Below, piece by piece: positions 5,877 through 64,000 of a stretch of DNA of 64,000 bases. How positions within the stretch are numbered: position 1 is the stretch's first letter; each line of letters starts with the position of its first letter. The stretch spans positions 8,569 through 72,568 of the forward strand of contig JAGVXK010000020.1 of assembly GCA_018303825.1 (NCBI GenBank). The letters are read 5' to 3'. Source of the DNA: Candidatus Pacearchaeota archaeon (GTDB taxonomy: Archaea; Nanobdellota; Nanobdellia; Pacearchaeales; GW2011-AR1). Below the pieces are notes generated by a model. The model was given only the letters and a program-made list of their open reading frames with translations. It did not search any database and was not told the origin of the DNA. Made by a program: the position numbers and the translations under genes.

Positions 5877-6742
5877 TTATCTGCTTATACTTGCTAATCG
5901 AATTAATCCTAACCAATGATTATCCCCAAAATTTAACTTTTGTCCTGCCCGGTTACATGGAACTTCATCTAATGTTGTATGTGCTTCTATGAAGTTATGC
6001 TGAATAACCAAAGCATTCATTAAAATTGGGGCAGACCATAAAGCTTTCAATCCTCTAAAGTCATCAACTCTATCTTTAATCTTCATAAAAACGGTTTCTA
6101 TTCGGTAGTTATGTATTTTAGTAACACTTGCATTTTGTATTTTATGCTCAATTGTTAAACCACCAATTTTATTAGAATAGAAGAGTTTTCTAAATGCTCT
6201 TGGATAGAAAACACCTCCATCAGTTTGAATAAATCTTGGCTTTCCTTTTTGAATTGACTTAAAAAGGAATTTTTGTGCTTCTATTGGATTGCCTGACAAA
6301 CTATAATGAGCCCCTGTAATTAATCGGGTATCCCAATCAATACAACACCAAAATCTATCATCTCTCCCTCCGCAATCAATTAAGGTTTCATCAGCATAAA
6401 AATTATTTCCCATGTTATACCCTAACTTATCAACAAACTTGCTGACTTTTAATGTATATCTTCTTACCCAGTCAAGAATGCTCATATGGCTTATTTTCGT
6501 GTTTAGATGTCTGCTTAACTGATTTCTCATTTTCCTACTTGACAGATTAGAAATATACATATCGATTGACATTGTAATAATCTTTTCATTATTTCTCATT
6601 CTGTAAAAGCCATTATCGAAGACAAAACGATAATTACAAATCTTACATCTGTATCTTTGGATTTTTCCTCTTTTTCTGTTGTTCTTAATTCATCTTTCTT
6701 AATGCTTTTCTCTTCACAATGTGGACAAACTATCTCTTTCAT
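5877..6742 (-). CDS. IS6-family-like DDE transposase, N-terminal CxxC...CxxC zinc finger in a different frame (-1 frameshift needed)
   Basis: ADETLI ... IQTDGG ... NYRIETVFMKIKDR spacing resembles IS6 DDE. Frame from ATG 6742 gives MKEIVCPHCEEKSIKKDELRTTEK. The main frame continues RGKIQRYRCKICNYRF... after the A-run at 6670-6676. Confidence 0.65.
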
Positions 6743-18442: not shown

Positions 18443-18463
18443 ATATTATTAAGAAAGATTAAT

Positions 18464-18471
18464 TTTATAAA
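18464..18471. promoter_or_regulatory. Palindromic TATA-like box TTTATAAA centred in a 50-nt divergent intergenic region
   Basis: Exactly 21 nt from the box to the ATG at 18442 (-) and 21 nt to the ATG at 18493 (+). Confidence 0.4.
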
Positions 18472-18492
18472 TACTACTTTATTAGAGTTCGA

Positions 18493-47043: not shown

Positions 47044-48106
47044 TTAAAGAAGATACCTAGAAATAGAAACCTGCTTCAATCTTTCTTTTTTGACTTTTTG
47101 AATCTCCTTTAATATTTTCTTCCTAAGATTAAATGAATTTGACCATTTAACATATGCTTGCCAACCTTGACAGCTTTCCATTAATTTCCAATAAGAGATC
47201 TCGCACTTTTTCAGTTCGTTTATCCTTTTTTGCATTTTTCTTATATTTCTCTTCCTTACCAATCTGAAACGATAAAAATTTCTGAATCCAACAAAGTCAG
47301 TCCCCCTTGAAAGAGGAATTATCCTTGATTTTTGAGGATGAAGTTCTATCTTCAATCTTTCTCTCAAAAAGGGGTCAATTTGTTCTTTCCATATTTCTAA
47401 TTGTCTGTCAGATTCATGCAAAATAACAAAATCATCAACATAACGAATGTAGTACTTAGCTTTCAAAATGTGTTTAACGTAATAATCTAACTTATTAAGA
47501 TAAACATTAGCGAAGAATTGAGAAGTTAAATTGCCCAAAGGCATACCCTTCGGGCGTCCGCCCCCCCCCCGATTGGACTGTATTGCTAAGAATTCGGCGA
47601 ATCAGCCAAATAACTTTTTCATCAGCTATTTTTCTTCTAATTATCTTTAAAAGAATTTCATGATCAACCTCTTTAAAATAATGCCTTATATCTGCTTTAA
47701 GGCAGAAAGCATTTCTCGTAAGGTTTTTTGTAATTTTTCTTGAAAATAAGTTAAATCTGCTCAAAGCAAACAAATTGCCCTTACCAATCTGATTGGCGCA
47801 TGAATCATAAATAAATTCTCTCTCAAACATGCGACTTATAACTAAGATGATAGCGTGATGAACAACTCTATCCCTAAAATCTGATTTAGAGATTACTCTT
47901 GTTTTCGGGTCTCTCAAAACAAAAGTTGTTAATGGCCTTAGTTTATAGGTTTTATTTTTTAATTCATAATGCAAAGCAAGAAGATTTTCTATTAGGTGCT
48001 TTTCAAATTCAACAACATCTTTATGCAAGGTTTTTCCTTTTCTTGCTTTTCTCCAAGCAAGAATCAAGTTTTCCATAGAGTAGATCTTACAAAATAAACT
48101 TTCCAT
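47044..48106 (-). CDS. DGR-type reverse transcriptase, split into two frames at a G10 (coding-strand) homopolymer
   Basis: Track ORFs 47507-48106 and 47044-47544 join across 47561-47570. Motifs LRDPKTRVI, C-L-K-ADIRHYF, GMPLGNLTSQFFANVYL ([LIV]GxxxSQ), YVDD. Confidence 0.85.
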
Positions 48107-48116
48107 ATTATGATAA

Positions 48117-48131
48117 TTCTGGTAGCCAGAA
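48117..48131 (-). other. Hairpin TTCTGG-TAG-CCAGAA between TR and the RT start codon
   Basis: 6-bp perfect stem, 3-nt loop; lies 2 nt from the TR 3' end (coding orientation) and 10 nt from the RT ATG. Confidence 0.55.
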
Positions 48132-48132
48132 C

Positions 48133-48223
48133 TATTCCAAAGACAGAGCCATTATCATTGTTCAGGTTCCTGTTGTTGCAGTTGAAGTTAGACCTGTTGT
48201 TCCTGTCAAGCCTGTTCAACCAG
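48133..48223 (-). repeat. DGR template repeat (TR)
   Basis: Ungapped 91-nt alignment to 48548-48638; 77 identities; all 14 differences are A on the coding strand of TR. Confidence 0.88.
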
Positions 48224-48328
48224 GCGTTATAGTCAATTTATCTTCATGTCACCACTGCTTCACGTATGTTGCAGTTGAATTTTATGGCTTAAAATAAACC
48301 TAAATATGCGCTAATAAACTAACTTGTA

Positions 48329-48347
48329 GTTCTGGTGCTACCAGAAC
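48329..48347 (-). other. Hairpin GTTCTGGT-GCT-ACCAGAAC downstream of the target gene stop / upstream of TR
   Basis: 8-bp perfect stem; stem sequence related to the 48117-48131 hairpin. Confidence 0.5.
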
Positions 48348-48382
48348 CAATTTGATAAGAAATAAGGATTTTATAAATCTGA

Positions 48383-49210
48383 TTACTTTTTAAAGAAATC
48401 AGCAACCTTTCTCAGTGAAGCTGTGCCTCTCTTACCTTCAATAACACCATCTATTATAGTTAAATATTGTTTTGCCTGTCTCGGAGTATAACCACGAACT
48501 TTTGGCTCGTTAATTTGGCGCGAAGTGCCTTCGGCACTTTCCACAGAAACCCCAAAGACAGAGCCATAATCATCGCTCAGGCTCCTGTCGTTGCAGATGA
48601 AGGCAGACCTGTAGTTCCTGTCAAGCCCGTCCAACCAGTGTCCTCTTGCATAATCTTCCCCAGTTATTCTTGGCAAATAAACAGTAACTTCTGGCAATCT
48701 CAAATTCTCTGGCAATTCATTTCTTAAAAATAATCCATATCTATTAGCTAATTCTGGACTTTCAGCTTTCCATCTTATTGTTGGATCATCAGCAAAACTA
48801 TCTGTTGGAACTGGATGAGTTTTAGCCTGTCCAAGATTCAAAACCCTTTTTTGTTCTAAAGGTTTTATTTCATCTTTTTCAGCTATCTGCCTAAGTACTT
48901 GAGTAAATGGTCTCTTGCCTTTTCTTATTTCATCAGTTAAATAAAATTCGCCTGTTCTCTGAGCTTCTACAGCTTGTTTTGCATAGGGAATAAGCGGATT
49001 AAATTCTGCTCTTGCCAGCAATATTGCTCCATCAACAACATTAGAATCTTCTGCTGTCCAAGCTCCTCCTTCAAAATGTGTTTGATCATTAACTCCTCTT
49101 TCTAATCTATCTTCAATAAGTTCTCTTCCTGTAGAAACACGCTTATTTGCATTCTTAGCTTGTGCTAAACAATATGCCCAATTTCCTTGGTCAATTCTTT
49201 GTAATTTCAT
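48383..49210 (-). CDS. DGR target (variable) protein, 275 aa, VR near the C-terminus
   Basis: Contains the VR (WLDGLDRNYRSAFICNDRSLSDDYGSVFG); no N-terminal hydrophobic signal visible. Confidence 0.85.
   Translation of the reverse strand: MKLQRIDQGNWAYCLAQAKNANKRVSTGRELIEDRLERGVNDQTHFEGGAWTAEDSNVVDGAILLARAEFNPLIPYAKQAVEAQRTGEFYLTDEIRKGKRPFTQVLRQIAEKDEIKPLEQKRVLNLGQAKTHPVPTDSFADDPTIRWKAESPELANRYGLFLRNELPENLRLPEVTVYLPRITGEDYARGHWLDGLDRNYRSAFICNDRSLSDDYGSVFGVSVESAEGTSRQINEPKVRGYTPRQAKQYLTIIDGVIEGKRGTASLRKVADFFKK
48523..48539 (-). other. Hairpin AAGTGCC-GAA-GGCACTT (coding strand) 9 nt downstream of VR
   Basis: 7-bp GC-containing perfect stem, 3-nt loop, inside the coding region just after the adenine-free GGCTCTGTCTTTGG end of VR. 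Confidence 0.6.
48548..48638 (-). repeat. DGR variable repeat (VR)
   Basis: See TR; in frame within 48383-49210. Confidence 0.88.
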
Positions 49211-50769: not shown

Positions 50770-51129
50770 TTATACTGGAAGTTGACTGGCAACCTGCTGC
50801 TGAGTTAATGCCTGAAGATACTTCTCGCATCCTCCAAAAGCATTGCACTGTTGAATGAAATTGGACAATGCCGAGATTACCCTCGCTAGTATGAAGCTGT
50901 TAATTAACAACCCTATGAATGAAAGAATTAATCCTGCGACCGCCCAGCTCGTTTTTCCTTTTCTAATTTGAATAAAGCCAAATATTACCCCCAGTACTGA
51001 CAAAACAAAGCCAACTGCCGGAGAAAAAACTGCAAATATTATCAAGAAAGCAATTAGAACGCTCAAAACTCCGAAGATAAAAGAGACTAACCCAAATGAG
51101 TTATCTACCATTTCCCCTTTTTTATCCAT
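50770..51129 (-). CDS. Small integral membrane protein (DUF4190-like)
   Basis: Three hydrophobic helices, 119 aa. Confidence 0.45.
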   Translation of the reverse strand: MDKKGEMVDNSFGLVSFIFGVLSVLIAFLIIFAVFSPAVGFVLSVLGVIFGFIQIRKGKTSWAVAGLILSFIGLLINSFILARVISALSNFIQQCNAFGGCEKYLQALTQQQVASQLPV

Positions 51130-51184
51130 TATTATCTTTATGCAAAGGGTTTTATAAAGTTTTAGTTTTGGTCGGCTTTGCGTA

Positions 51185-51892
51185 CTAATTAGCCCTTAAT
51201 TTTGCCAGAGCTTCATTTTGAATTTGCCTAATCCTTTCTCTAGTCACATGGTAGATTTTTCCAATTTCTTCAAGTGTTTTTTTCTTCCCATTTAGTCTAA
51301 GAAATCTTAGCTCCAAAACCTTTCTTTGTTGGGGGTTCAATTTTTTAAGAAGATTATGCACAAAAGCAGAATCAGATCTTTCACATATATCATCGTAGGG
51401 CATTCTTGCGTGAATATCTGTTATTAATGTCTCCATTGACTCCCCATCATCGCCGGTTGGTTCATCTATGGAAACAAATGTAACTGGTCCGTCTTTTGGA
51501 TGATATTTTGCCAGATATCTTCTTCTTTCTTTTTTCAATGCATTAAGAATATTTTTTCTTACATAATACCTTGCATAGGTACTCAATTTTGCTTTTTTCT
51601 TATTGTATGGATTATACCTATCAATTCCTTCCATTAATCCTTGATTGCCCTCGCTTATTAAGTCCAATAGTGGAACCCCTCTATAGGTATATTTTTTAGC
51701 GACATTCACAACAAGCTTCAAATTGCGATTAATTAATTCTCTTCTCGCATTTCTGTTCCCCCTCATCTTTTTTACAGCGAGTGCAAATTCTTCCTCTCTT
51801 GTTAAAAGAGGCCCAGATATCTGGGAAAGATAGACATCTAATCCATCATATGCCCTAGACCTTCTTGCTCCATCATATAATATTTTTGACAT
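51185..51892 (-). CDS. Bacterial-type sigma-70 family RNA polymerase sigma factor
   Basis: Region 1.2/2: YLSQISGPLLTREEEFALA...LINRNLKLVVNVAKKY...LLDLISEGNQGLMEGIDRYNP...KLSTYARYYVRKNI. Region 4: QRKVLELRF...TLEEIGKIYHVTRERIRQIQNEALAKLR. Confidence 0.85.
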   Translation of the reverse strand: MSKILYDGARRSRAYDGLDVYLSQISGPLLTREEEFALAVKKMRGNRNARRELINRNLKLVVNVAKKYTYRGVPLLDLISEGNQGLMEGIDRYNPYNKKKAKLSTYARYYVRKNILNALKKERRRYLAKYHPKDGPVTFVSIDEPTGDDGESMETLITDIHARMPYDDICERSDSAFVHNLLKKLNPQQRKVLELRFLRLNGKKKTLEEIGKIYHVTRERIRQIQNEALAKLRAN

Positions 51893-51973
51893 AAAAATTG
51901 ACAAGAATTGGAGTTTAAAAACCTTATAGCCTAGTTTTGCTACTGATTTGGGAGAAAATAACAGCAGATAAGA

Positions 51974-52714
51974 TTATGCAATTGAGGGTTTGCGGGTTAT
52001 CGAAGCATTGTCAAATAACCTCTTGCCGATAATAGAAAAGTCCAGGACTCCATTGTCGCGAGCATTTTCGAAAACTAAACCATAGGCATGCATTCTGTCT
52101 ATTGCCAAGCCAAATCTCACTATTCTGTCAAAATCTTCTACATAAGATCTGCTTAAATAAATTGGATTGATTTTCAGAGGAGTTGAAATAAATTTGCTTA
52201 AATCTCTGGAAACATAATCACTTCCCGGATGGTCTTTACAATCAGATGGAATCAGAAGAACTGATGCCCTCCAGGGACTTTCTCTAAATTCTCTTTTTGC
52301 CTGTTCCTCAGATGCAATTTTTCGAAATGGGGCAACTTTTTCAGCAAGGAATTTTTTATATTCTTCGAACAAAATATCTGTATTTCTTGCTGCTCTGACA
52401 AATAATGGAACGATTGGGACTGAAACTCTTCTTATTATTTCTTTAGTTAAATTTCTTTTATCATAGGGGTAAGTCACCTCATTAATCTGCATTGCCCATT
52501 CAGAGATGCCATACTCATTAATTCCTTCAATAGGTTCTAATTCTAAAAGTAATTCATCTGCCCTTTCAACTTTCTTTGCTCCAACAAGCTTATCATACTG
52601 TGTTGGGATAATTCTCAGATATAACGAATCAGAAATCTTTGGGAGCTTGCCAAACCTTCTGTTGTATGCTGCTCTTGCTTTTTTTAGAATATATTCCAAC
52701 ATTTCCATTACCAT
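51974..52714 (-). CDS. Hypothetical protein upstream of the sigma factor gene
   Basis: 246-aa ORF, no motif recognised. Confidence 0.5.
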   Translation of the reverse strand: MVMEMLEYILKKARAAYNRRFGKLPKISDSLYLRIIPTQYDKLVGAKKVERADELLLELEPIEGINEYGISEWAMQINEVTYPYDKRNLTKEIIRRVSVPIVPLFVRAARNTDILFEEYKKFLAEKVAPFRKIASEEQAKREFRESPWRASVLLIPSDCKDHPGSDYVSRDLSKFISTPLKINPIYLSRSYVEDFDRIVRFGLAIDRMHAYGLVFENARDNGVLDFSIIGKRLFDNASITRKPSIA

Positions 52715-52761
52715 AATAAAGAATATTTTCTAGCATATTTAAGTCTTCTATTTAATTTTTA

Positions 52762-53922
52762 CTACCCGCACAGACTAAATTTATCTGATGTTAACCTGAT
52801 CAAATCACTGTCAAGAATTTTCTTTCTATCGTCGGCAAAAGCTTTGAATTTAATGAAAAGAGATTCAAATTCATCCTCCCTGAAAGAATATCCTAATTGT
52901 TTATACTTTGTTCTAAGAGCATTTCTTCCTGATCTTGGACCAAAGGTTTGAATGCTTTCATAGCCAAACATTTTTGGTTCAAATATCTCATATGTATTCC
53001 TGTCTTTCAACATCCCATCCTGATGAATACCGGCTTCATGGGCAAATGCATTCTTTCCTACTATGGCTTTATTATCTTGGGGGTAATGGCCTGTGAATTG
53101 AGAGCACATCTCGCTTGTTTCTTTGATAAACTCTGTTTTTATTCCAGAATAGCCGACATTTTTCAAAATCATTGCTGCAACAATTTCCTCCAAAGCTGTA
53201 TTTCCTGCCCTTTCTCCTATTCCATTTATAGTAACCTCTGCTTGTCTGGCTCCTGCAAGAATTCCCATCAGAGTATTCGCTGTAGCCATTCCAAGATCAT
53301 TATGATTATGAATGGAAAAAATTGCGTCTAAACCAGAGTTTCTTACATTATCAATTACATATTTTATTTTTTCATATGATTCTAAAGGAGCAAGGCAGCC
53401 GACAGTATCTGGAAGATTAATAGTTGTTGCGCCCTCCTCTATTGCCGCTCTAACAACTTGAACAACATAATTTAAATCAGATCTTGAAAAATCTTCGCAT
53501 GAGAATTCTACATCATAAACATAAGATTTCGCTTTTCTAACTGCATTTCTGGCTTTTTCTATAACCCATCCATTAGTTTTCTTGAATTTTCCACTTATGT
53601 GGATGTCGCTTGTTGCAATGAATGTATGAATCCTTTGATTTTTTGCATTTTCAATGGCTTTTGCTGCTAATTCTATATCTCCCTCTACAGCTCTCGCCAA
53701 TGAGCATATTACAACATCTTCTTGCCCAAATTCCTTGGATATTTGTTTTATTGATTCGAAATCTCCGCATGAAGAAACTGCAAAACCGGCTTCTATTACA
53801 TCAACTCCCAGCTTGTGAAGCTGCTTTGCCAGAGCTAGCTTTTCATTTCTAAGGAAATGAAACCCTGGGGCTTGATCCCCGTCCCTTAATGTTGTATCGA
53901 ATATAGTTATTTTATTTGTCAT
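52762..53922 (-). CDS. 2-isopropylmalate / citramalate / homocitrate synthase family enzyme (HMGL-like domain only)
   Basis: ITIFDTTLRDGDQAPG, HNHNDLGMATANTL; lacks the long C-terminal regulatory domain; ATG at 53922. Confidence 0.8.
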   Translation of the reverse strand: MTNKITIFDTTLRDGDQAPGFHFLRNEKLALAKQLHKLGVDVIEAGFAVSSCGDFESIKQISKEFGQEDVVICSLARAVEGDIELAAKAIENAKNQRIHTFIATSDIHISGKFKKTNGWVIEKARNAVRKAKSYVYDVEFSCEDFSRSDLNYVVQVVRAAIEEGATTINLPDTVGCLAPLESYEKIKYVIDNVRNSGLDAIFSIHNHNDLGMATANTLMGILAGARQAEVTINGIGERAGNTALEEIVAAMILKNVGYSGIKTEFIKETSEMCSQFTGHYPQDNKAIVGKNAFAHEAGIHQDGMLKDRNTYEIFEPKMFGYESIQTFGPRSGRNALRTKYKQLGYSFREDEFESLFIKFKAFADDRKKILDSDLIRLTSDKFSLCG

Positions 53923-54156
53923 AGAAACCTCTAAAGATTTATGATGTAGTGAAATCAAACTAAAAATAAACTGAAAGCAAACTAGAAGCTTAATTTCACA
54001 AAAGTAAGAGCAGCAAAGCTAAAGAACTTGTTCCACTGAAGGATTTATCTGCACTTTGCATTTCTTTTAAAGAACTGGAATCTATTTAAATTTTTGCTTT
54101 TCACAGTTTATCTTCAGTACAATAAATGTTATATACTTCTTCCAGAACTTAATTTA

Positions 54157-54252
54157 ATGAAAAAAGTCAAAGCAGGAATACTTGGAGCAACTGGAGCAGC
54201 CAGAGGAGCAATCCTAACTGCTGAACTACTTCATCACAAAGGCCTTTTGTAA
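54157..54252 (+). pseudogene. 31-codon relic resembling the N-terminus of an NAD(P)-dependent semialdehyde dehydrogenase (ArgC/Asd-like)
   Basis: MKKVKAGILGATGAARGAILTAELLHHKGLL*: GxxGxxG Rossmann start, then immediate stop. Confidence 0.3.
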
Positions 54253-54323
54253 TTAATTCAATTATTCTTTTGTTTCTACCTTTTAACAAATGGTTTTATA
54301 AAGATTTGATTTTATATATAGAA

Positions 54324-55052
54324 ATGAGAGAGGTTGAATTCAGGCCTTCGACTTTGGAAGAAAGAGAGGCGTTCTACAGGAAAGAATTCGATATAAACAA
54401 AGTTAAGAGATGGTTTAAGAAAAATGGGATGAAACTTCCCCAGATATGCGCTCTTGACGCCGGGACGGATACTGGAATAATAAAAAATCCCAAACTAAAA
54501 GGTGAAATGATTTACTTTCTGTTCTCTGAGCTGAAAGGGAAGATAAAAGAATATGTTCCAGAAGATGTTTATTATGATAGGGGAAGATACAAGCATGCCT
54601 GGCAGAAGCTCAGACATTTAAACAAAAAAAGCTGGACAGAACAAGAGATAGTATTTGATGTAGACAGCGACAATATCTCTAAATGCGACAAATTAAATGG
54701 AAGATGCCTGTCGACAGCATATAGTTATGCAAAAAATATGAAGAATGCACTAAAAAAATATTTCAAGGAAATGAAAATGGTTTATTCCGGGAGGGGATTC
54801 CATATCCATATTTTGGATAAGAAGGCGTATATGATGAACAAGCATGAAAGGAAAGAATTCACCGCTAAATTCAGGAGATTTCCAATAGATCTATGGGTTT
54901 CGCAGGGAAATATAGAATTGATACGACTTCCGTACTCTCTTAACTCATTAGTTTCGAGAAAAGTTACGCCGATAAATAAAAAATTCAGGGCAAAAGAAGC
55001 AATCCCTGATTTTTTAAAGAAAAATTATCTTCTCTTTCTTTTCTTAGCGTAG
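54324..55052 (+). CDS. priS: DNA primase small (catalytic) subunit PriS, compact form
   Basis: AEP motifs IVFDVDSD, SGRGFHIHI, ELIRLPYSLNSL; track start is TTG 54270, ATG at 54324. Confidence 0.75.
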   Translation: MREVEFRPSTLEEREAFYRKEFDINKVKRWFKKNGMKLPQICALDAGTDTGIIKNPKLKGEMIYFLFSELKGKIKEYVPEDVYYDRGRYKHAWQKLRHLNKKSWTEQEIVFDVDSDNISKCDKLNGRCLSTAYSYAKNMKNALKKYFKEMKMVYSGRGFHIHILDKKAYMMNKHERKEFTAKFRRFPIDLWVSQGNIELIRLPYSLNSLVSRKVTPINKKFRAKEAIPDFLKKNYLLFLFLA

Positions 55053-55260: not shown

Positions 55261-55794
55261 TCAATAAATTGCATATCCTCTTGACCCGTCATTAATAATT
55301 ATTTCCGGATTGAAAACATTTCTTATTTCATCACTGTTTGCTGGGGCATATCCATCAATATTATTAAATTTATTGACATAATTAACCATGAATTGTGAAT
55401 TCATCAGCTGTGCATGTAAATGCGGCCACCAATTTCCATTCTCGGTTGTTTCGCCTATAATTCCGACAATTTCTCCCTCTTTAATTGGCTGTCCAAGTTG
55501 TAATTTTATGTCTTGTTTTAGATGTCCGAACAACAAGTAATTTCCACCTTCTAACTTGAAAATTAATCTTCCTCCCCAGCCGATTTTGTTCTCGGGATCA
55601 AACATTATATGATAAACTTCCCCCGGTTTTGGCAAACATACGGGTGTTCCAAAAGGAACAGTATAATCTGTTCCTAAATGAATCAAACTTTCTCCTTTTT
55701 CAGTTGGATGATTTCTCCATAGATATGTTCTATCTTCAAGAAAACCTCCATAAAAATAGTCTATTCTTTTTGCTCTCCCAGACTGTCTAGCCAA
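55261..55794 (-). CDS. M23 (LytM/lysostaphin-type) metallopeptidase domain protein
   Basis: HLGTD (HxxxD) and WPHLHAQ (HxH) motifs. Track start is TTG. A 45-codon ATG-initiated ORF (start 55898) lies upstream in another frame, so the true start is uncertain. Confidence 0.75.
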   Translation of the reverse strand: MARQSGRAKRIDYFYGGFLEDRTYLWRNHPTEKGESLIHLGTDYTVPFGTPVCLPKPGEVYHIMFDPENKIGWGGRLIFKLEGGNYLLFGHLKQDIKLQLGQPIKEGEIVGIIGETTENGNWWPHLHAQLMNSQFMVNYVNKFNNIDGYAPANSDEIRNVFNPEIIINDGSRGYAIY

Positions 55795-57260: not shown

Positions 57261-57791
57261 ATCTGATGTTGATGTGCTTAGATACAAATATCTTAGATAT
57301 AAATATCTTTGGTAATCAAATGTCAGAATAAGAGATAATCAAATAAAACAAGCAGAAGAGAATCATGTTATAATTCCTGGACTTTGAACCAAGAATTGTA
57401 TTTTATGTTTTCATATATTTTTATGTATATTTCTACGCGCAAATAATTTAAAATTATTATGAGGCTTTTAGTAGATGCATGCTGAACCCCTCGTTTTCTC
57501 GGGGCGTACACATCATCTCTATCAACGTCATCTTCTTTGACGGCCTTAGTTGTCTCGTCTTGCGGACGGCTTCGCACTTAGATGCTTTCAGTGCTTATCC
57601 GTAAATGCGTAGCTGCGCGGCCTGCTCATAACAACCGCTATACCAGAGGCATCCGATTACCGTTCCTCTCGTACTAGATAATCGTTCCACTCAGACAACA
57701 GCGCGCCTAGTAGATATCATACATACTGTCTCGCGTATATACTCAAAACTTATTTATTTGTTTTGTATGGACTATACCTTCACCCTTGTCA

Positions 57792-57871
57792 ATGTTTAAA
57801 CCGAAATAATTATCTTATACGCCTACTTTGATAAGCGATGTACGAGCTAACTACTTAATCTAACCCTTGAA
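57792..57871. repeat. ~80-nt repeat, copy 1 (inside the 23S domain V insertion)
   Basis: ATGTTTAAACCGAAATAATTATCTTATACGCCTACTTTGATAAGCGATGTACGAGCTAACTACTTAATCTAAC, roughly 85-90 percent identical by eye to 58169-58250. Confidence 0.75.
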
Positions 57872-58168
57872 TGAGGGGATTCGCGTTTTACCTATCTTTG
57901 TAAAAGATAAGTCTTAGGAATTTAATCCTAAAGTCTCTACGGGGTCAATTCTAAGCGAACCTTACGGTTCTCTTACAAACTCTCCCTTGCATTTCTGCTT
58001 AGGGCTAGTTAAAACGACTTCCCTCGGGGTTACCATCTTATTACAGTATTGAATAAGAAGACTTCACCGATATGAGCGAATTTTATTTTTCATGAAATTG
58101 CTTTCATGCTACGCCGCGATGTGAATTATTGTTTGTTTTTCGTGGTTTGCGTTCTTGTTTGTGTTATT

Positions 58169-58250
58169 ATGTTTAAACTGAAATAATTATCTTATACATC
58201 TACTTTGATAAGCGATGTTAAAGCTAATTACTTGTAATCTAAACTATGTG
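58169..58250. repeat. ~80-nt repeat, copy 2 (same insertion, direct orientation)
   Basis: ATGTTTAAACTGAAATAATTATCTTATACATCTACTTTGATAAGCGATGTTAAAGCTAATTACTTGTAATCTAAAC. Confidence 0.75.
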
Positions 58251-58985
58251 TTTTCCATTGAGATTTACATTTGTCATAACGTTTTATGTTTGCTTGCTAA
58301 TTCTTGGTTTGGTTCTCTAATTAGACTGGATTGTCTTTCGACGTATTTAACCCAGCTAACGATCCCTTTTAATGCGTGAACTCCGACACCCTTGGTTGCT
58401 AATGCACAACCAGGATAGGAAGAGCCGACAGCGATGTACCAAACCGCGCCGTCAATATGGACTATCGGGCGCGACAAGCCTGTTATCCTTGAGGTACCTT
58501 TTCTGCCACACTCAGGTCCTAGTAAAAGACCATGAGGGGTCGCTAAGCCCGACTTTCATCTCTGCATCTTTTGCTGTGCAAGATACAGTCAGGTAAACTT
58601 TTGCCTTCGCACTCAACTCCAGATTTCCAACCTGGATGAGTTTACCATTAGGCCCTACAGATATCTTTTCTGTAGGGTGCCGCCCCAGCCAAACTGCCCG
58701 CCTGCTGGTGTCCTCTCTCGAGTAAGCAGCTTTAAGGAAAATAAGTAGTGTTACATGGTTGCTCCCCTTTCGCCGAAGCTAAGGTTCTAAGCTCCTACCT
58801 ACGCTATGCATTCCCCTTAAAGCTACAACAACAAGTTGCAGTAAAGGTCTACAAGGTCTCCGCTTCCCACTAGGCGTCACCGGCATTTTCACCGGTAAGT
58901 GAGTTCAGAAGGTTCTGGTTAGGGACAGTGACCATCACGTTGATCCATTCATGCACGTCACCATTCAGATGACAAGGCATTACGC

Positions 58986-59183
58986 TCATTCTGGTAAATT
59001 GATTTTTACATCGAGTGTTACCGAAGTTCCTGAATTTCTTGCAGCTTCTAAAGTCTTCTCTTGTAAAGCACTCATTGGTATCAACAACATAACTGGCGCA
59101 CTGCCAGTTGTTTTAACCTCATAAGTGCTATGCGCTTCAGATGCAATTCTTCGAACTTCAATTCTGCAATTATATTCAGTCAT
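58986..59183 (-). CDS. Hypothetical 65-aa ORF at the 3' end of the 23S intron
   Basis: ATG-initiated; its TGA stop is the last three intron nucleotides; no motif recognised. Confidence 0.3.
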   Translation of the reverse strand: MTEYNCRIEVRRIASEAHSTYEVKTTGSAPVMLLIPMSALQEKTLEAARNSGTSVTLDVKINLPE

Positions 59184-59355
59184 TCTTAATCCTTAAATTA
59201 AGAGTATTTAAAAATTTGTATACTAAAATAAAAGTTGTATTTTTCACAACTTCTTTTTCTCGCGAAAAAGATCGGAACATATCTTCGTAAGCAAACCAAG
59301 GTTTTCTTACAAACTTTCCTTGTTGTTACGTCTAACGTATGTTCTCTGAGGATTT

Positions 59356-60111
59356 TCAATACGACTGATATCTTACATTTACCTTATATTTTTCGAGTAA
59401 ATTCTGTTTTCTACGACAATTGAAATAAAAACCATTTTCAACAAAGCTTCTTAAATTTATATTTATCTGAAAACAATCTTTTTCATTAATACTTCTATAT
59501 TTCTTTTTCAAGGTCTTTTTACCAACCTTTACTCCGAAATTTCGCAACAACGAAATAAAATCATCAATCCAGTCTCCAGAATTAATAAACCCTAAAGAAA
59601 ATCTTTGCCAACCGAACTTGTTAGTTCCAGTGCTTATGTATCCATCCGTATCCATTAAACCTGCTACAAATGCAGAAAATATCTCTTTTTCTGAGTTTGT
59701 AACAAATTCAGGAATCTTAGATTTATTATTTGTTTGAAGAGTTAAACATTCAAATAAACTTTTTCCATAAACTCTGTATTTATAAAGTATAGTTTTATTT
59801 GGTATTATTTCTTTTAAAAATCCTTTTTTATTGAATAATTTATTTACAATAAAGCATGTTTTTTCGATTACATCTTTATCTCCAGAGACTATACAAAAGC
59901 CATAGCTTTTTGATTTAAAGCAACAGCCATCTCCTAAATAAACTCCAAATAAATAAGATTTTTCAATCTCATTAGAAAGCTGATTATATTGAATCTTTCC
60001 TGCTTGGTTGTCTGCAGTCATCTTATTTTCACGCCAACAAACTTTAAAAATTAAGTTGTCGTCGTAAAGTGACATTCTCAGATGTTCCAGCATATAGTTA
60101 GATTTTCTCAT
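59356..60111 (-). CDS. Double-motif LAGLIDADG homing endonuclease
   Basis: LFGVYLGDGC and FVAGLMDTDGY motifs about 100 aa apart; located inside the 23S intron. Confidence 0.85.
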   Translation of the reverse strand: MRKSNYMLEHLRMSLYDDNLIFKVCWRENKMTADNQAGKIQYNQLSNEIEKSYLFGVYLGDGCCFKSKSYGFCIVSGDKDVIEKTCFIVNKLFNKKGFLKEIIPNKTILYKYRVYGKSLFECLTLQTNNKSKIPEFVTNSEKEIFSAFVAGLMDTDGYISTGTNKFGWQRFSLGFINSGDWIDDFISLLRNFGVKVGKKTLKKKYRSINEKDCFQININLRSFVENGFYFNCRRKQNLLEKYKVNVRYQSY

Positions 60112-62053
60112 GGATCTCGCATATGTTTATTTCAATTTTCAAATATGTCTTTTTGTTTATTTTGCCTGTCTATGAAGCTTGAGCAAAATTAATTTTTATT
60201 TTAATTTATTTCTTAATCTCGTAAGGCAGTTTAGTTTTCTATTCAACCTTAAGAGCCTCATAGTTAGGCCCGCCGTTTCACGGGTCTTAGCCCTCTTGAA
60301 CGAGGGTTTGAAACACCGCGACTGGGCAGGACTCACCGATTATATAAATCCTTTCAGATTGGCAATCGGCTACGTTTTTGATAAACAGTCGGACGGTCCT
60401 TGTTACTGAGATCTACAAACGCCTTCGATAAATCAAAGACATCCATAGACACCCCTTCTACCGAAGCTAGGGGGCCAATATGCCGAGTTCCCTTAACCAG
60501 GTTATACCTTTCACGTCTTAGCCTTTTCAGCTAGAGCACCAGTGTCAGTTCTTGGTACGGCTTCTATGTAAAGTACACAAATTTTTCAAGGACTCTAGGA
60601 GTCAGCAAATTTATCCAAACAATTCAACTAGATTAAAGCATTACGCTCCCTAATTTTCTTGCCTAGAAGTTCTCTCGAACCTCCGCTTATCCCCAAGCAC
60701 ATCGTGCAATGTAATACATAGAAAGTTCTGGAATATTAACCAGATGTCCAATCGCCAACCGCAGTTAAGAGTTGACTTAGGAGCCGACTAACCCTTGGTT
60801 AAACAATAGTGCCAAGGAAACCTTGCTCTTTCGACGCTATCCGTTCTCAGGATAATCTGATCTTACTAGCACCACGATACTCATTACTTTTCGCTCCATA
60901 CTTTCTTTCGAAAATACTTCTACGCAAAAAGTACGCCTGCCTACCAGAACACTCTTGCGAGTGCCTCTGGAGTGTCGGTAATGTGTTTAGCCCTGTCCAT
61001 TTTCCCTGCTTCAAACCTCGATAGGTGAGCTGTTACGCTTTCTTTAAATGGTGGCTGCTTCTAAGCCTACATCCCTACTGTCTCAGGTTTAAAACTAGGT
61101 TTGTTACACTTAACACATATTTTGGGACCTTAACTCCAGTCTCCCTTGTTCGGGTCTTCGAACAGTACCTTACGCACTGCCCGCCATTCCCGTTGATTAC
61201 AGTCAGCAAGTTCAGAGTTGGAATCGAACTCCGTAGCCATATAGGCTCTGCAAGTTCCATCCGTGCTTTACCCCGCTGACAAGCTCAAACGAGACTATAC
61301 TTAGGCATATTTCGACAGGAACCAGCCATCGCCAGATTAGATAGGCTTTTCACCCCCACTCGCAGATCATCCAAATGCATGTGCACAATACTGGTTCGAA
61401 CCTCCATTCTCCTTTCGGAGAACTTCGTTCTGCCCACGAGTAGATCATCTGGCTTCGGGTCATGCGCATGTGACTAACGCTCTTTCGAACTCGCTTTCGC
61501 TACGGCTTCATAAATTAACCTCGCCACATGCGAATACTCCGTGGCCTGTTTTTCAAAACGTACGCTACAACACCTTAATGCTGTAGCCAGCTGTAACTGC
61601 TAGATTTCAAGTCTTTTAACCCTCTATTAAGAGTGCTTTTCAGCTTTCCCTCGCGGTACTAAGTTCGCTATCGGACTTGAATTTATATTTAGGGTTGGCA
61701 GTTAATCCTGCCGTCTTCAGACCTCCTATCTAGGGGGCCCTACTCTTTTGGAATATAGCATATCACGTTAGAGTACGGGACTATCACCCTTTAAAGTGCT
61801 TCATTCCAGAAAACTTTCTCTCCATGACTTAGCCTTAACTTCCACCACATCTCTACCTTCTTTTCAAAAGGAGATTCGGTTTGCCCTGATCCCTTTTCGC
61901 TCGCTGCTAATGGGGGAATCATTTTTATTTTCTCTTCCTGCTGGTACTAAGATGTTTCAGTTCCCAGCGTATGCTTATATCTCTATATTCTATTACTAGA
62001 ACGTTGTCGAATTCGGAAATCTTGGGTTCAAAGCCCGCATGCGGCTACCCCAA

Positions 62054-62084
<31 letters not shown>

Positions 62085-62337
62085 AATTCAAACCAAGCTA
62101 TCCGTCTAGCAGTGTATGTAGTAATTCCTCAACAACTGACACGAAATCAGTTGTCTTGTCAAAATCAAATTATCCACGCCTGATTCTCTCCTGCTTGCTT
62201 CATTGAATATTATCTCTGCGTGATAAGCCTCCGATGGAGACTCACCACTCTCGCCAAATCCGGGACCTTGTGAGTGCCGGACCCTTGGGAACTTAATCCC
62301 AGACGATCTCGGTAATTTTAAAGTCTTTTCTTGACTC

Positions 62338-63477: not shown

Positions 63478-64000
63478 AAGTTTTTGCTAAATCTTCTGTT
63501 TAAAAATACTTCGGTTGGTTCCCTTCATCTTTTAAAATTAATTAAAAGATTACTATGAAACCAGCTGACTTCCTCTCGACTAATCTTGAGTAGGATCTCC
63601 TTGGGTCACTTTGTTTTCTATTTCATCCATTCAAGTTAACGATTTTTTGTTTAACTTCCATCTATCACCGACCCGACTAGATGTCGTTAATCGTTGATTA
63701 CCTATTACTAGGTACTAGACTGGATTTTGTCTTGAGCCCTTCATCTTTACCATTACTGATAACGACTGCTCTAAACTAAATTATTTTTTCTGCACTAATT
63801 ACATTTTGGTTTTGAAAAAATAACTACAAGAATTTCACTTGTTAGAATACAAAGCTGCCAAGCACATTTCTTTCGGTGAGTGCAAGGAGCATTGACTTAT
63901 TCACCGGACTCTAATAAAATCCGATTACTACGAATTCCAGCGTCATGAGGGTGAGTTGCAACCCTCAATCTGAACTAAGCTGCAGTTTATGAGATTAATG

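Follow-up and report, generated by a model that had tools for sequence, protein, structure and literature searches.

An open reading frame (ORF) on the minus strand of a Pacearchaeota contig proves to be a genuine sigma-70-family gene, intact and bacterial in descent, that resides in an archaeal chromosome. The gene entered its lineage on a 3,144-bp insertion that also brought in an ORFan and a leuA-like gene of bacterial type. This insertion split a 50-nucleotide bidirectional promoter shared by PriS and a membrane-protein gene, duplicating 37 nucleotides. The identity of the sigma gene, its archaeal residence and its horizontal origin are secure. As to its role, we lean somewhat towards a retained regulator that would bind DNA through its sigma-4 domain and would possibly touch the archaeal RNA polymerase.

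Identity and anatomy of the sigma-70-family protein

Positions are those of the window, by which we mean the whole stretch of DNA analysed (64,000 nucleotides). The gene, its promoter and the parts of its product are placed as follows.

51185..51892, minus strand: sigma-70-family gene, 235 aa, with its stop codon at 51185-51187 (Pfam and NCBIfam profiles)
51907..51921, minus strand: predicted archaeal-type promoter of the sigma gene, a TATA-like box plus a genome-specific element
51515..51847, minus strand: region 1.2 and sigma-2 domain (regions 2.1-2.4), codons 16-126 (Pfam, RpoS/RpoD alignment, 55 homologs, pLDDT >90)
51398..51514, minus strand: junction and region-3.2 finger, codons 127-165 (RpoS alignment; no PF04539; disordered in the model)
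51188..51397, minus strand: sigma-4 domain, codons 166-235 (Pfam, RpoS alignment, homolog comparison)

The 235-aa product is identical to the NCBI entries MBS3091575.1, AQS32209.1 and AQS33203.1, the first of which is named there 'sigma-70 family RNA polymerase sigma factor [Candidatus Pacearchaeota archaeon]'. An earlier note on this DNA had read sigma-70 region 1.2/2 and a region 4 helix-turn-helix in the frame. All of the peptides that it quoted are in the translation, and the ORF matches three Pfam domains, each above its cut-off: Sigma70_r4 (PF04545; 66.3 bits against 24.1, E = 1.7e-18), Sigma70_r2 (PF04542; 48.6 bits against 24, E = 7e-13) and Sigma70_r1_2 (PF00140; 25.6 bits against 22, E = 1e-5). 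The Pfam scan gave no match to Sigma70_r3 (PF04539) in the ORF, a domain that all 119 listed homologs have. Among the NCBIfam models, the protein passed the superfamily model TIGR02937 (106.9 against 42.9) and reached no equivalog cut-off, the best being RpoS (168.9 against 378.7), with RpoD at 140.9 against 572. We assign the protein to the sigma-70 family because of this domain content, and we place it outside groups 1, 2 and 3 because it lacks sigma-3 and falls short of the equivalog cut-offs. Nor is it an ECF factor, since region 1.2 and a group-1-type finger are present. The ATG at 51892 is the likely true start, rather than a TTG upstream at 51904, because a TATA-like box (TTTTTAAA, 51914-51921) lies at -29 to -22 from this ATG, the standard position in the genome; the box is followed by AACTCCAAT at 51907-51915.

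An AlphaFold2 model of the protein, computed with 55 homologs in the alignment (mean pLDDT, 79), has a sigma-2 domain at residues 30-125 (pLDDT >90), a disordered linker at residues 134-159, a sigma-4 domain at residues 165-234 (pLDDT about 85) and no sigma-3 domain. Its top Foldseek matches in the PDB were RpoS and SigA chains from holoenzyme structures. In the alignment to E. coli RpoS, residues 7-130 of the query (239-aa numbering) correspond to RpoS 45-166 and residues 144-237 to RpoS 221-315. Where the entire sigma-3 domain would be, a span of 54 RpoS residues is represented by a 13-residue junction, after which comes a retained region-3.2 'finger' (SIDEPTGDDGES). Region 2.2 keeps its core-binding helix (LLDLIsEGNqGLM, LLDLISEGNQGLM), the recognition helix of region 4.2, TRERIRQI, is identical to the bacterial consensus, and the C-terminus lies directly after region 4.2.

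Conservation is uneven along the protein. The 55 best bacterial homologs define 120 columns that are at least 90% conserved, of which 76 are kept, 37 substituted and 7 lost. Identity to the bacterial consensus is highest in region 4 (0.58), reaches 0.54 in regions 2.1-2.2, and in region 2.3-2.4 (0.39) and the 3.2 finger (0.38) is among the lowest of the named functional regions; for region 2.3-2.4 the bacterial homologs score 0.89 against the consensus that they form. The region 2.3 Trp-Trp dyad (W433/W434 in E. coli sigma-70 numbering; coordinates from an alignment to RpoD chain 4jk1_X), whose conservation among the 55 homologs is 90% or more, is Tyr-Tyr in the archaeal protein. In the same E. 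coli numbering, Q437 is replaced by Lys and R441 by Asn. The region 2.3 tryptophan dyad is used for DNA melting. As far as sequence conservation can tell, the pattern fits a protein that would have kept -35-type DNA reading and its fold while the part concerned with -10 recognition and melting drifted.

Archaeal surroundings and the 3,144-bp insertion

The host is a small groundwater archaeon (Pacearchaeota, DPANN). Its ribosomal RNA genes lie downstream on the same contig.

57448-62130: archaeal LSU rRNA
63807-64000: archaeal SSU rRNA, 3' end

Pfam identified PriS, NFACT-R and YhbY on the window, which also encodes S19e and L31e; L1, L10P with the archaeal/eukaryotic insertion domain, and FtsZ; the elongation factor Spt5 (NGN-KOW) and L11; and, as parts of a DGR, an RT-16 RNA and a reverse transcriptase. 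The archaeal markers listed in the earlier note were thus largely recovered (S19e, L31e, YhbY, the DGR parts, PriS and the rRNAs), the exception being eL39, for which Pfam gave no confirmation in the window. These contig markers, the protein's domains and a set of identical assemblies sustain the note's core reading of a bacterial-type sigma-70 gene embedded in an archaeal chromosome.

The note had also asked whether the segment might be mis-joined. An assembly chimera or a mis-binned bacterial fragment is ruled out by six loci from different samples and assemblers (JGI, ENA, Logan), which match the window at 100% identity for up to 14 kb, both insertion junctions included, and by a flat composition across the region. 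GC is level across 48-56 kb, and the z-scores of the sigma gene against 55 window genes are -0.01 for GC, -0.23 for GC3 and +0.20 for codon usage. In all, 18 contigs carry the sigma gene with the same neighbours, and the promoters inside the insertion are of host type, which again speaks against a chimera. We regard the chance of such an artifact as negligible.

The insertion and the genes in and around it are as follows.

51170..54276, no strand: insertion body (3,144-bp repeat period); L031, L034 and L035 have an empty site here
51133..51169, no strand: left copy of a 37-nt direct repeat, which has the TATA box of the membrane-protein gene (ATG 51129, minus strand)
54277..54313, no strand: right copy of the 37-nt direct repeat, which has the TATA box of PriS (ATG 54324)
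51974..52714, minus strand: 246-aa ORFan in the insertion (profile, homolog and structure searches)
52762..53922, minus strand: bacterial-type 2-isopropylmalate-synthase-like gene (leuA-like), 386 aa, in the insertion (profiles)
54324..55052, plus strand: PriS, primase small subunit, ancestral flank (relatives' synteny)
50770..51129, minus strand: 119-aa multi-pass membrane protein, ancestral flank outside the insertion (homologs adjoin PriS in L031 and L035)

In the three syntenic relatives (L031, L034 and L035), PriS and a small membrane-protein gene are neighbours in divergent orientation, and beyond the latter come, in order, a pilin-like gene, NFACT-R, YhbY, S19e, L31e, a DNA-alkylation-repair gene and TruB. 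The leuA-like gene, the ORFan and the sigma gene are missing from all three. Identity between PriS and its homologs in the closest relatives sampled reaches 60% at most. In L034 the unoccupied site is a 50-nt intergenic region with a single palindromic TATA box, TTTTATAAAG, shared by both genes. In the window, TTTTATAAAG is found in each of the two repeat copies, 21 nt away from a start codon, that of the membrane-protein gene in one and that of PriS in the other; the copies, 3,144 bp apart, are identical at 29 of 37 positions. As a control, TATA-bearing promoters from the window were set against one another in the same geometry, and the 600 ordered pairs gave 17.4 +/- 2.5 matches of 37. Only a pair physically sharing DNA exceeded 29 matches, and the next best had 23, setting aside the same two promoters in reverse order (25). 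Given that the repeat exceeds the control promoter pairs and that the site is empty in L034, we conclude that the ancestral bidirectional promoter was duplicated when the 3.1-kb segment inserted.

Besides the sigma gene, the ORFan and the leuA-like gene, the insertion contains 354 nt of non-coding or remnant DNA. The leuA-like gene scores 484-521 bits with bacterial LeuA models against 375 bits with the archaeal model, and its product is without the C-terminal regulatory domain. For the ORFan, profile searches (Pfam, NCBIfam) returned no family match, and its structural model (pLDDT 57.6) had no significant Foldseek match. An exhaustive search of 1.84 billion representatives gave it a sole remote homolog, P0244 (24% identity, E = 5e-9), on a contig with low GC, pilin-like neighbours and a TATA box at -28 that is probably from another DPANN archaeon. 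The insertion is a mosaic, in which a bacterial-type leuA-like gene lies beside an ORFan whose homolog is on a DPANN-like contig. A 52-aa ORF at 54094-54252, considered as an Asd/ArgC fragment, was set aside as it had no Pfam support.

Among 5.8 billion clustered proteins, the only near match to the sigma protein was the protein itself, and no ortholog in any other archaeon was found; the next best sequence was 39% identical and bacterial. The homologs that follow are bacterial sigma factors of 280-370 aa, and the named ones come from Verrucomicrobiota, Kiritimatiellae or Acidobacteriota. A scan for the Tyr-Tyr dyad (K[LF]STYAx[YF][YF][VI]) found 24 loci, all bacterial and at most 34% identical over the full length, and no archaeal locus among one representative genome per species in GTDB release 232, a set that the window's own genome lies outside. 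The lineage-specific 3.1-kb insertion and the bacterial nearest relatives bear out horizontal acquisition from bacteria, one of the origins that the earlier note had proposed. The donor cannot be named, because identity is too low and there is no close relative. We also considered whether leuA and sigma came over together from the closest bacterial clade and rejected this: in the four bacterial contexts the sigma gene adjoins Rrf2 (with thioredoxin) or IlvD, never leuA.

A bacteriophage source, which the note had likewise offered, gained no support. The PHROG 351 match of the sigma protein is to the generic sigma family, tblastn against 50,697 phage records gave generic similarity at 43% identity at best, and IMG/VR held no relative of the protein. 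The same searches weigh on the idea that the insertion is an integrated mobile element or virus and that the sigma factor serves the element, as phage sigmas do. Phages commonly encode sigma factors, and the PHROG 351 match, the strain- or lineage-specific presence and the flanking direct repeats, which resemble attL/attR at an otherwise empty site, would all suit such cargo. However, 3.1 kb is too small for a virus, and Pfam, NCBIfam, PHROG and PADLOC found no integrase, transposase, replication or structural gene within it; with only generic phage similarity and nothing in IMG/VR, we judge this origin improbable.

Retention and possible function of the sigma gene

Across the window, about 25 of the 67 ORFs have a TATA-like box starting 27-29 nt before the ATG. 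A TATA box at this distance is the signature of leaderless archaeal transcripts. The element AACTCCAAT occurs five times in the window against 1.0 expected, and three of the five occurrences come directly after TATA boxes. Judged by its sequence, the sigma gene has the host's own TATA promoter at the standard leaderless distance and typical host codon usage, and with this native archaeal promoter and codon usage it appears to be domesticated.

The coding capacity of the insertion has also been kept. All three of its ORFs are intact, although 6-7% of random substitutions would make a stop codon. The two repeat copies differ at 8 of 37 positions (22%; Jukes-Cantor distance, 0.255), and if these mismatches measure the time since insertion, the chance of an ORF remaining open under neutral drift is about 0.002 each for sigma and the ORFan, and about 0.0002 for the leuA-like gene. 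Such low odds argue for purifying selection, with the caveat that the repeat may never have been perfect. The population copies of the sigma gene are all identical.

The main rival to a retained regulator is that the gene is a functionless passenger, a remnant of foreign DNA inserted by chance that has so far escaped degradation and does nothing for its host. That would agree with its lineage-specific presence and absence from three syntenic relatives, the orphan status of the protein, the loss of sigma-3 and the replaced Trp dyad, and with a window in which neither cognate promoters nor bacterial core RNA polymerase genes are in view. Its travelling companions, a leuA-like gene without its regulatory domain and an ORFan, point the same way, as does the finding of no other leucine-pathway gene among the scanned window ORFs. 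Against this stand the three intact frames between repeats that have already diverged by 22%, and the gene's own host-type promoter and host codon usage. DPANN genomes are streamlined, and the sigma-70 family recurs in them (PMC8204110). We consider a passenger unlikely, though a real possibility.

If the gene is instead a retained regulator, as we favour, selection would have kept it as an accessory DNA-binding transcription regulator within the archaeon, and it would not be a general initiation factor in its host. The sigma-4 domain, its -35-type recognition helix unchanged, would bind TTGACA-like DNA, and the classical -10 melting function was probably lost or changed. The conserved sigma-2.2 helix and the 3.2 finger may still contact an RNA polymerase, which in this cell could only be the archaeal enzyme, presumably met at the clamp coiled-coil. 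In archaeal RNA polymerase the clamp coiled-coil is the site used by Spt5. Against polymerase contact, the sigma-2.2 motif may be kept for folding instead. A fuller version of the contact would dock sigma-2.2 on the clamp coiled-coil of Rpo1 and place the finger in the cleft, with sigma-4 bound to DNA, so that the protein competes with Spt5 or TFE or directs initiation at a few TTGACA-bearing sites; we find this doubtful.

Searches for target sites gave little signal. TTGACA-N17-TATAAT sites were not enriched in the whole window (16 against 15.6 expected), and sigma-70-type promoters showed no excess across 38-57.4 kb (79 against 67.5 +/- 8.3 expected). TTGACA alone was mildly over-represented (59 against 43 +/- 6), with 52 of the 59 inside ORFs. 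One arrangement lies at the sigma gene itself.

51886..51903, plus strand: a pair of perfect TTGACA hexamers spaced 12 nt apart, antisense to the sigma gene, whose ATG and presumed transcription start they span

These paired hexamers make the gene a candidate for autoregulation, which we offer as a weak lead.

Several possible partners were considered and rejected. The membrane protein at 50770..51129 is not an anti-sigma factor, being ancestral to the locus and present in relatives without sigma; because it and the pilin-like gene are ancestral PriS neighbours found in such relatives, neither is a sigma partner. No anti-sigma signature was found in the upstream ORFan (Pfam, NCBIfam, structure), and it was rejected as a recognisable partner on its lack of a family match, its low-confidence model and its lack of a structural match. 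A defence-system sigma (MzaA) was dismissed because the similarity is generic to sigma factors and the partner genes are absent; no other defence-system signal turned up.

The protein might instead act on a bacterial RNA polymerase, its core encoded elsewhere in the genome or belonging to a partner cell after delivery. A bacterial core would be the easiest explanation for the kept helix 2.2, 3.2 finger and -35 recognition helix. However, no secretion genes are linked to the locus, the contig encodes an archaeal Spt5, DPANN genomes are reported with archaeal TBP, TFB and TFE (PMC8204110), and the loss of sigma-3 and the Trp dyad would weaken the classical function. Delivery to a partner recalls the effector aimed at a bacterial partner that the earlier note had listed among its options, and the N-terminus, read by eye, has neither a hydrophobic, signal-peptide-like segment nor a membrane anchor, which tells against that option. 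Action on a bacterial polymerase thus seems to us very improbable.

Sigma factors and TBP/TFB are usually held to form a clean divide between bacterial and archaeal transcription, and DPANN sigma genes that persist are an unexplained breach of it. The present locus is a compact, well-defined test case, with exact boundaries, an empty site in relatives, a captured host promoter and a stripped-down sigma. If the protein binds archaeal RNA polymerase, it bears on the interchangeability of initiation factors across domains, and docking of the kind proposed above would amount to a functioning initiation system that is part bacterial and part archaeal. If it is a DNA binder or a passenger only, it speaks to the extent of bacterial-gene domestication in streamlined symbionts, with no role in initiation.

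Comparison with known systems

The best NCBIfam and PDB matches of the protein are RpoS, RpoD and SigA (E. coli RpoS, PDB 5ipl_F; T. thermophilus SigA), with RpoS at 168.9 bits and a PDB E value of 4e-33. As in RpoS and RpoD, regions 1.2, 2.1-2.4, the 3.2 finger and 4.1-4.2 are recognisable, and TRERIRQI is identical. Unlike them, the archaeal sigma protein has no sigma-3, region 1.1 or C-terminal tail, carries YY in place of WW together with Q437K and R441N, scores far under every equivalog cut-off, and has no bacterial core enzyme in view.

The closest sequences anywhere are sigma factors of Verrucomicrobiota/Kiritimatiellae and allied metagenomic bacteria (P0002-P0120, 300-350 aa), at 39% BLASTP identity and 39-45% in the multiple alignment. 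They share the motif AKLSTYA with the archaeal protein but, unlike it, all carry Sigma70_r3. Their contexts are bacterial: of four, two have both Rrf2 and thioredoxin upstream and another has only Rrf2. Group 4 (ECF) factors have the same two-domain plan as the archaeal protein, namely sigma-2, a linker and sigma-4 with no sigma-3, whereas the archaeal protein has region 1.2 and a group-1/2-type finger (GDDGES). Because of these two features, and because its best matches are the RpoS/RpoD models, we attribute the plan to deletion, not to ECF descent.

The functional counterpart of sigma in the host is archaeal TFB (TFIIB in eukaryotes), to which we detected no sequence relationship. TFB recognises promoters with TBP on TATA/BRE promoters, and its finger-like B-reader lies in the active-site cleft. 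The sigma gene's own promoter is of the TATA/BRE type that TFB and TBP serve.

Sigma-70 genes have been described in many DPANN genomes, most commonly in Woesearchaeota; mis-binning was excluded and no anti-sigma factors were found (Castelle et al. 2021, PMC8204110). Those genes co-exist with TBP, TFB and TFE, and their mechanism was left open (Castelle et al. 2021, PMC8204110). The family reported there, fam00359, resembles the present case in that a sigma-70 gene stands beside archaeal markers with no anti-sigma factor (Castelle et al. 2021, PMC8204110). The emphasis of that report is on Woesearchaeota; the present gene, by contrast, is in Pacearchaeota and has no detectable archaeal ortholog. 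Given that sigma-70 in DPANN is published (PMC8204110) and that this protein is already annotated at NCBI, the phenomenon is not new. The present analysis adds that sigma-3 is deleted, that the dyad is Tyr-Tyr and that the protein is an orphan; it also adds the exact insertion, with empty sites as controls, and the capture of a host promoter.

Content of the insertion and the relative of its ORFan

Besides the sigma gene and the 246-aa ORFan, the lineage-specific insertion carries two further open reading frames:

52762-53922, bacterial-type gene resembling 2-isopropylmalate synthase, C-terminal regulatory domain absent
54094-54252, 52-aa ORF with a glycine-rich motif, GILGATGAARG

The host of the synthase-like gene is a genome-reduced archaeon, and we found no further leucine-pathway genes among the window ORFs scanned. 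The motif of the 52-aa ORF resembles a Rossmann-fold N-terminus; the ORF had no Pfam match and may be a gene remnant. For the 246-aa ORFan, the sole remote homolog was P0244, a 211-aa protein encoded on contig L041 (1962-2597) and also on L042. Both contigs are short, with a GC content of 36%; the P0244 gene is flanked by pilin-like genes and preceded by a TATA box at -28. This setting suggests a protein family that is rare and specific to DPANN archaea.

Mobile elements and other genes in the window

A diversity-generating retroelement (DGR) neighbours the sigma locus at 47044-49210, and additional features lie farther out:

47507-48106 and 47044-47544, DGR reverse transcriptase, a split gene of two overlapping ORFs
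48224-48346, RT-16 RNA of the DGR
48383-49210, candidate variable protein of the DGR, no family match
5877-6599, IS240-type DDE transposase ORF
55261-55794, M23 peptidase, adjoining a metallophosphoesterase
59356-60111, LAGLIDADG homing-endonuclease ORF

The split of the reverse transcriptase may be conserved, since L034, a syntenic relative with an empty insertion site, likewise holds two adjoining ORFs at the corresponding position (51-55% identity by tblastn). The transposase ORF establishes that mobile DNA exists elsewhere on the contig. Between 25461 and 35669 lie six co-directional ORFs, one of 1,354 aa, that yielded zero Pfam matches; five of the six have a GC content of 0.39-0.41, compared to 0.35 in the remaining window. 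The M23 peptidase, encoded by an archaeon, is similar to bacterial peptidoglycan DD-endopeptidases. The archaeal LSU rRNA match (57448-62130) spans 4.7 kb, compared to 2,987 nt in the model, and contains the LAGLIDADG ORF; the 23S gene is therefore interrupted by one or more introns.

Promoter architecture and the sigma dyad

In approximately 25 of the 67 window ORFs, a TATA-like box begins 27-29 nt upstream of the ATG, which indicates that this Pacearchaeota genome produces leaderless mRNAs. One palindromic TTTATAAA can serve both genes of a divergent pair across a 50-nt intergenic region (for example, 18443-18492). TTGACA occurs 59 times window-wide (43 +/- 6 expected), the majority within ORFs, and two copies 12 nt apart on the antisense strand span the ATG of the sigma gene (51886-51903).

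Among representative bacterial genomes (loci L007-L030), Tyr/Phe sporadically replaces the Trp-Trp dyad in sigma factors from Verrucomicrobia, Bacilli, Cloacimonadota, Saccharibacteria, and Gastranaerophilales, and the dyad substitution is thus compatible with bacterial sigma factors.
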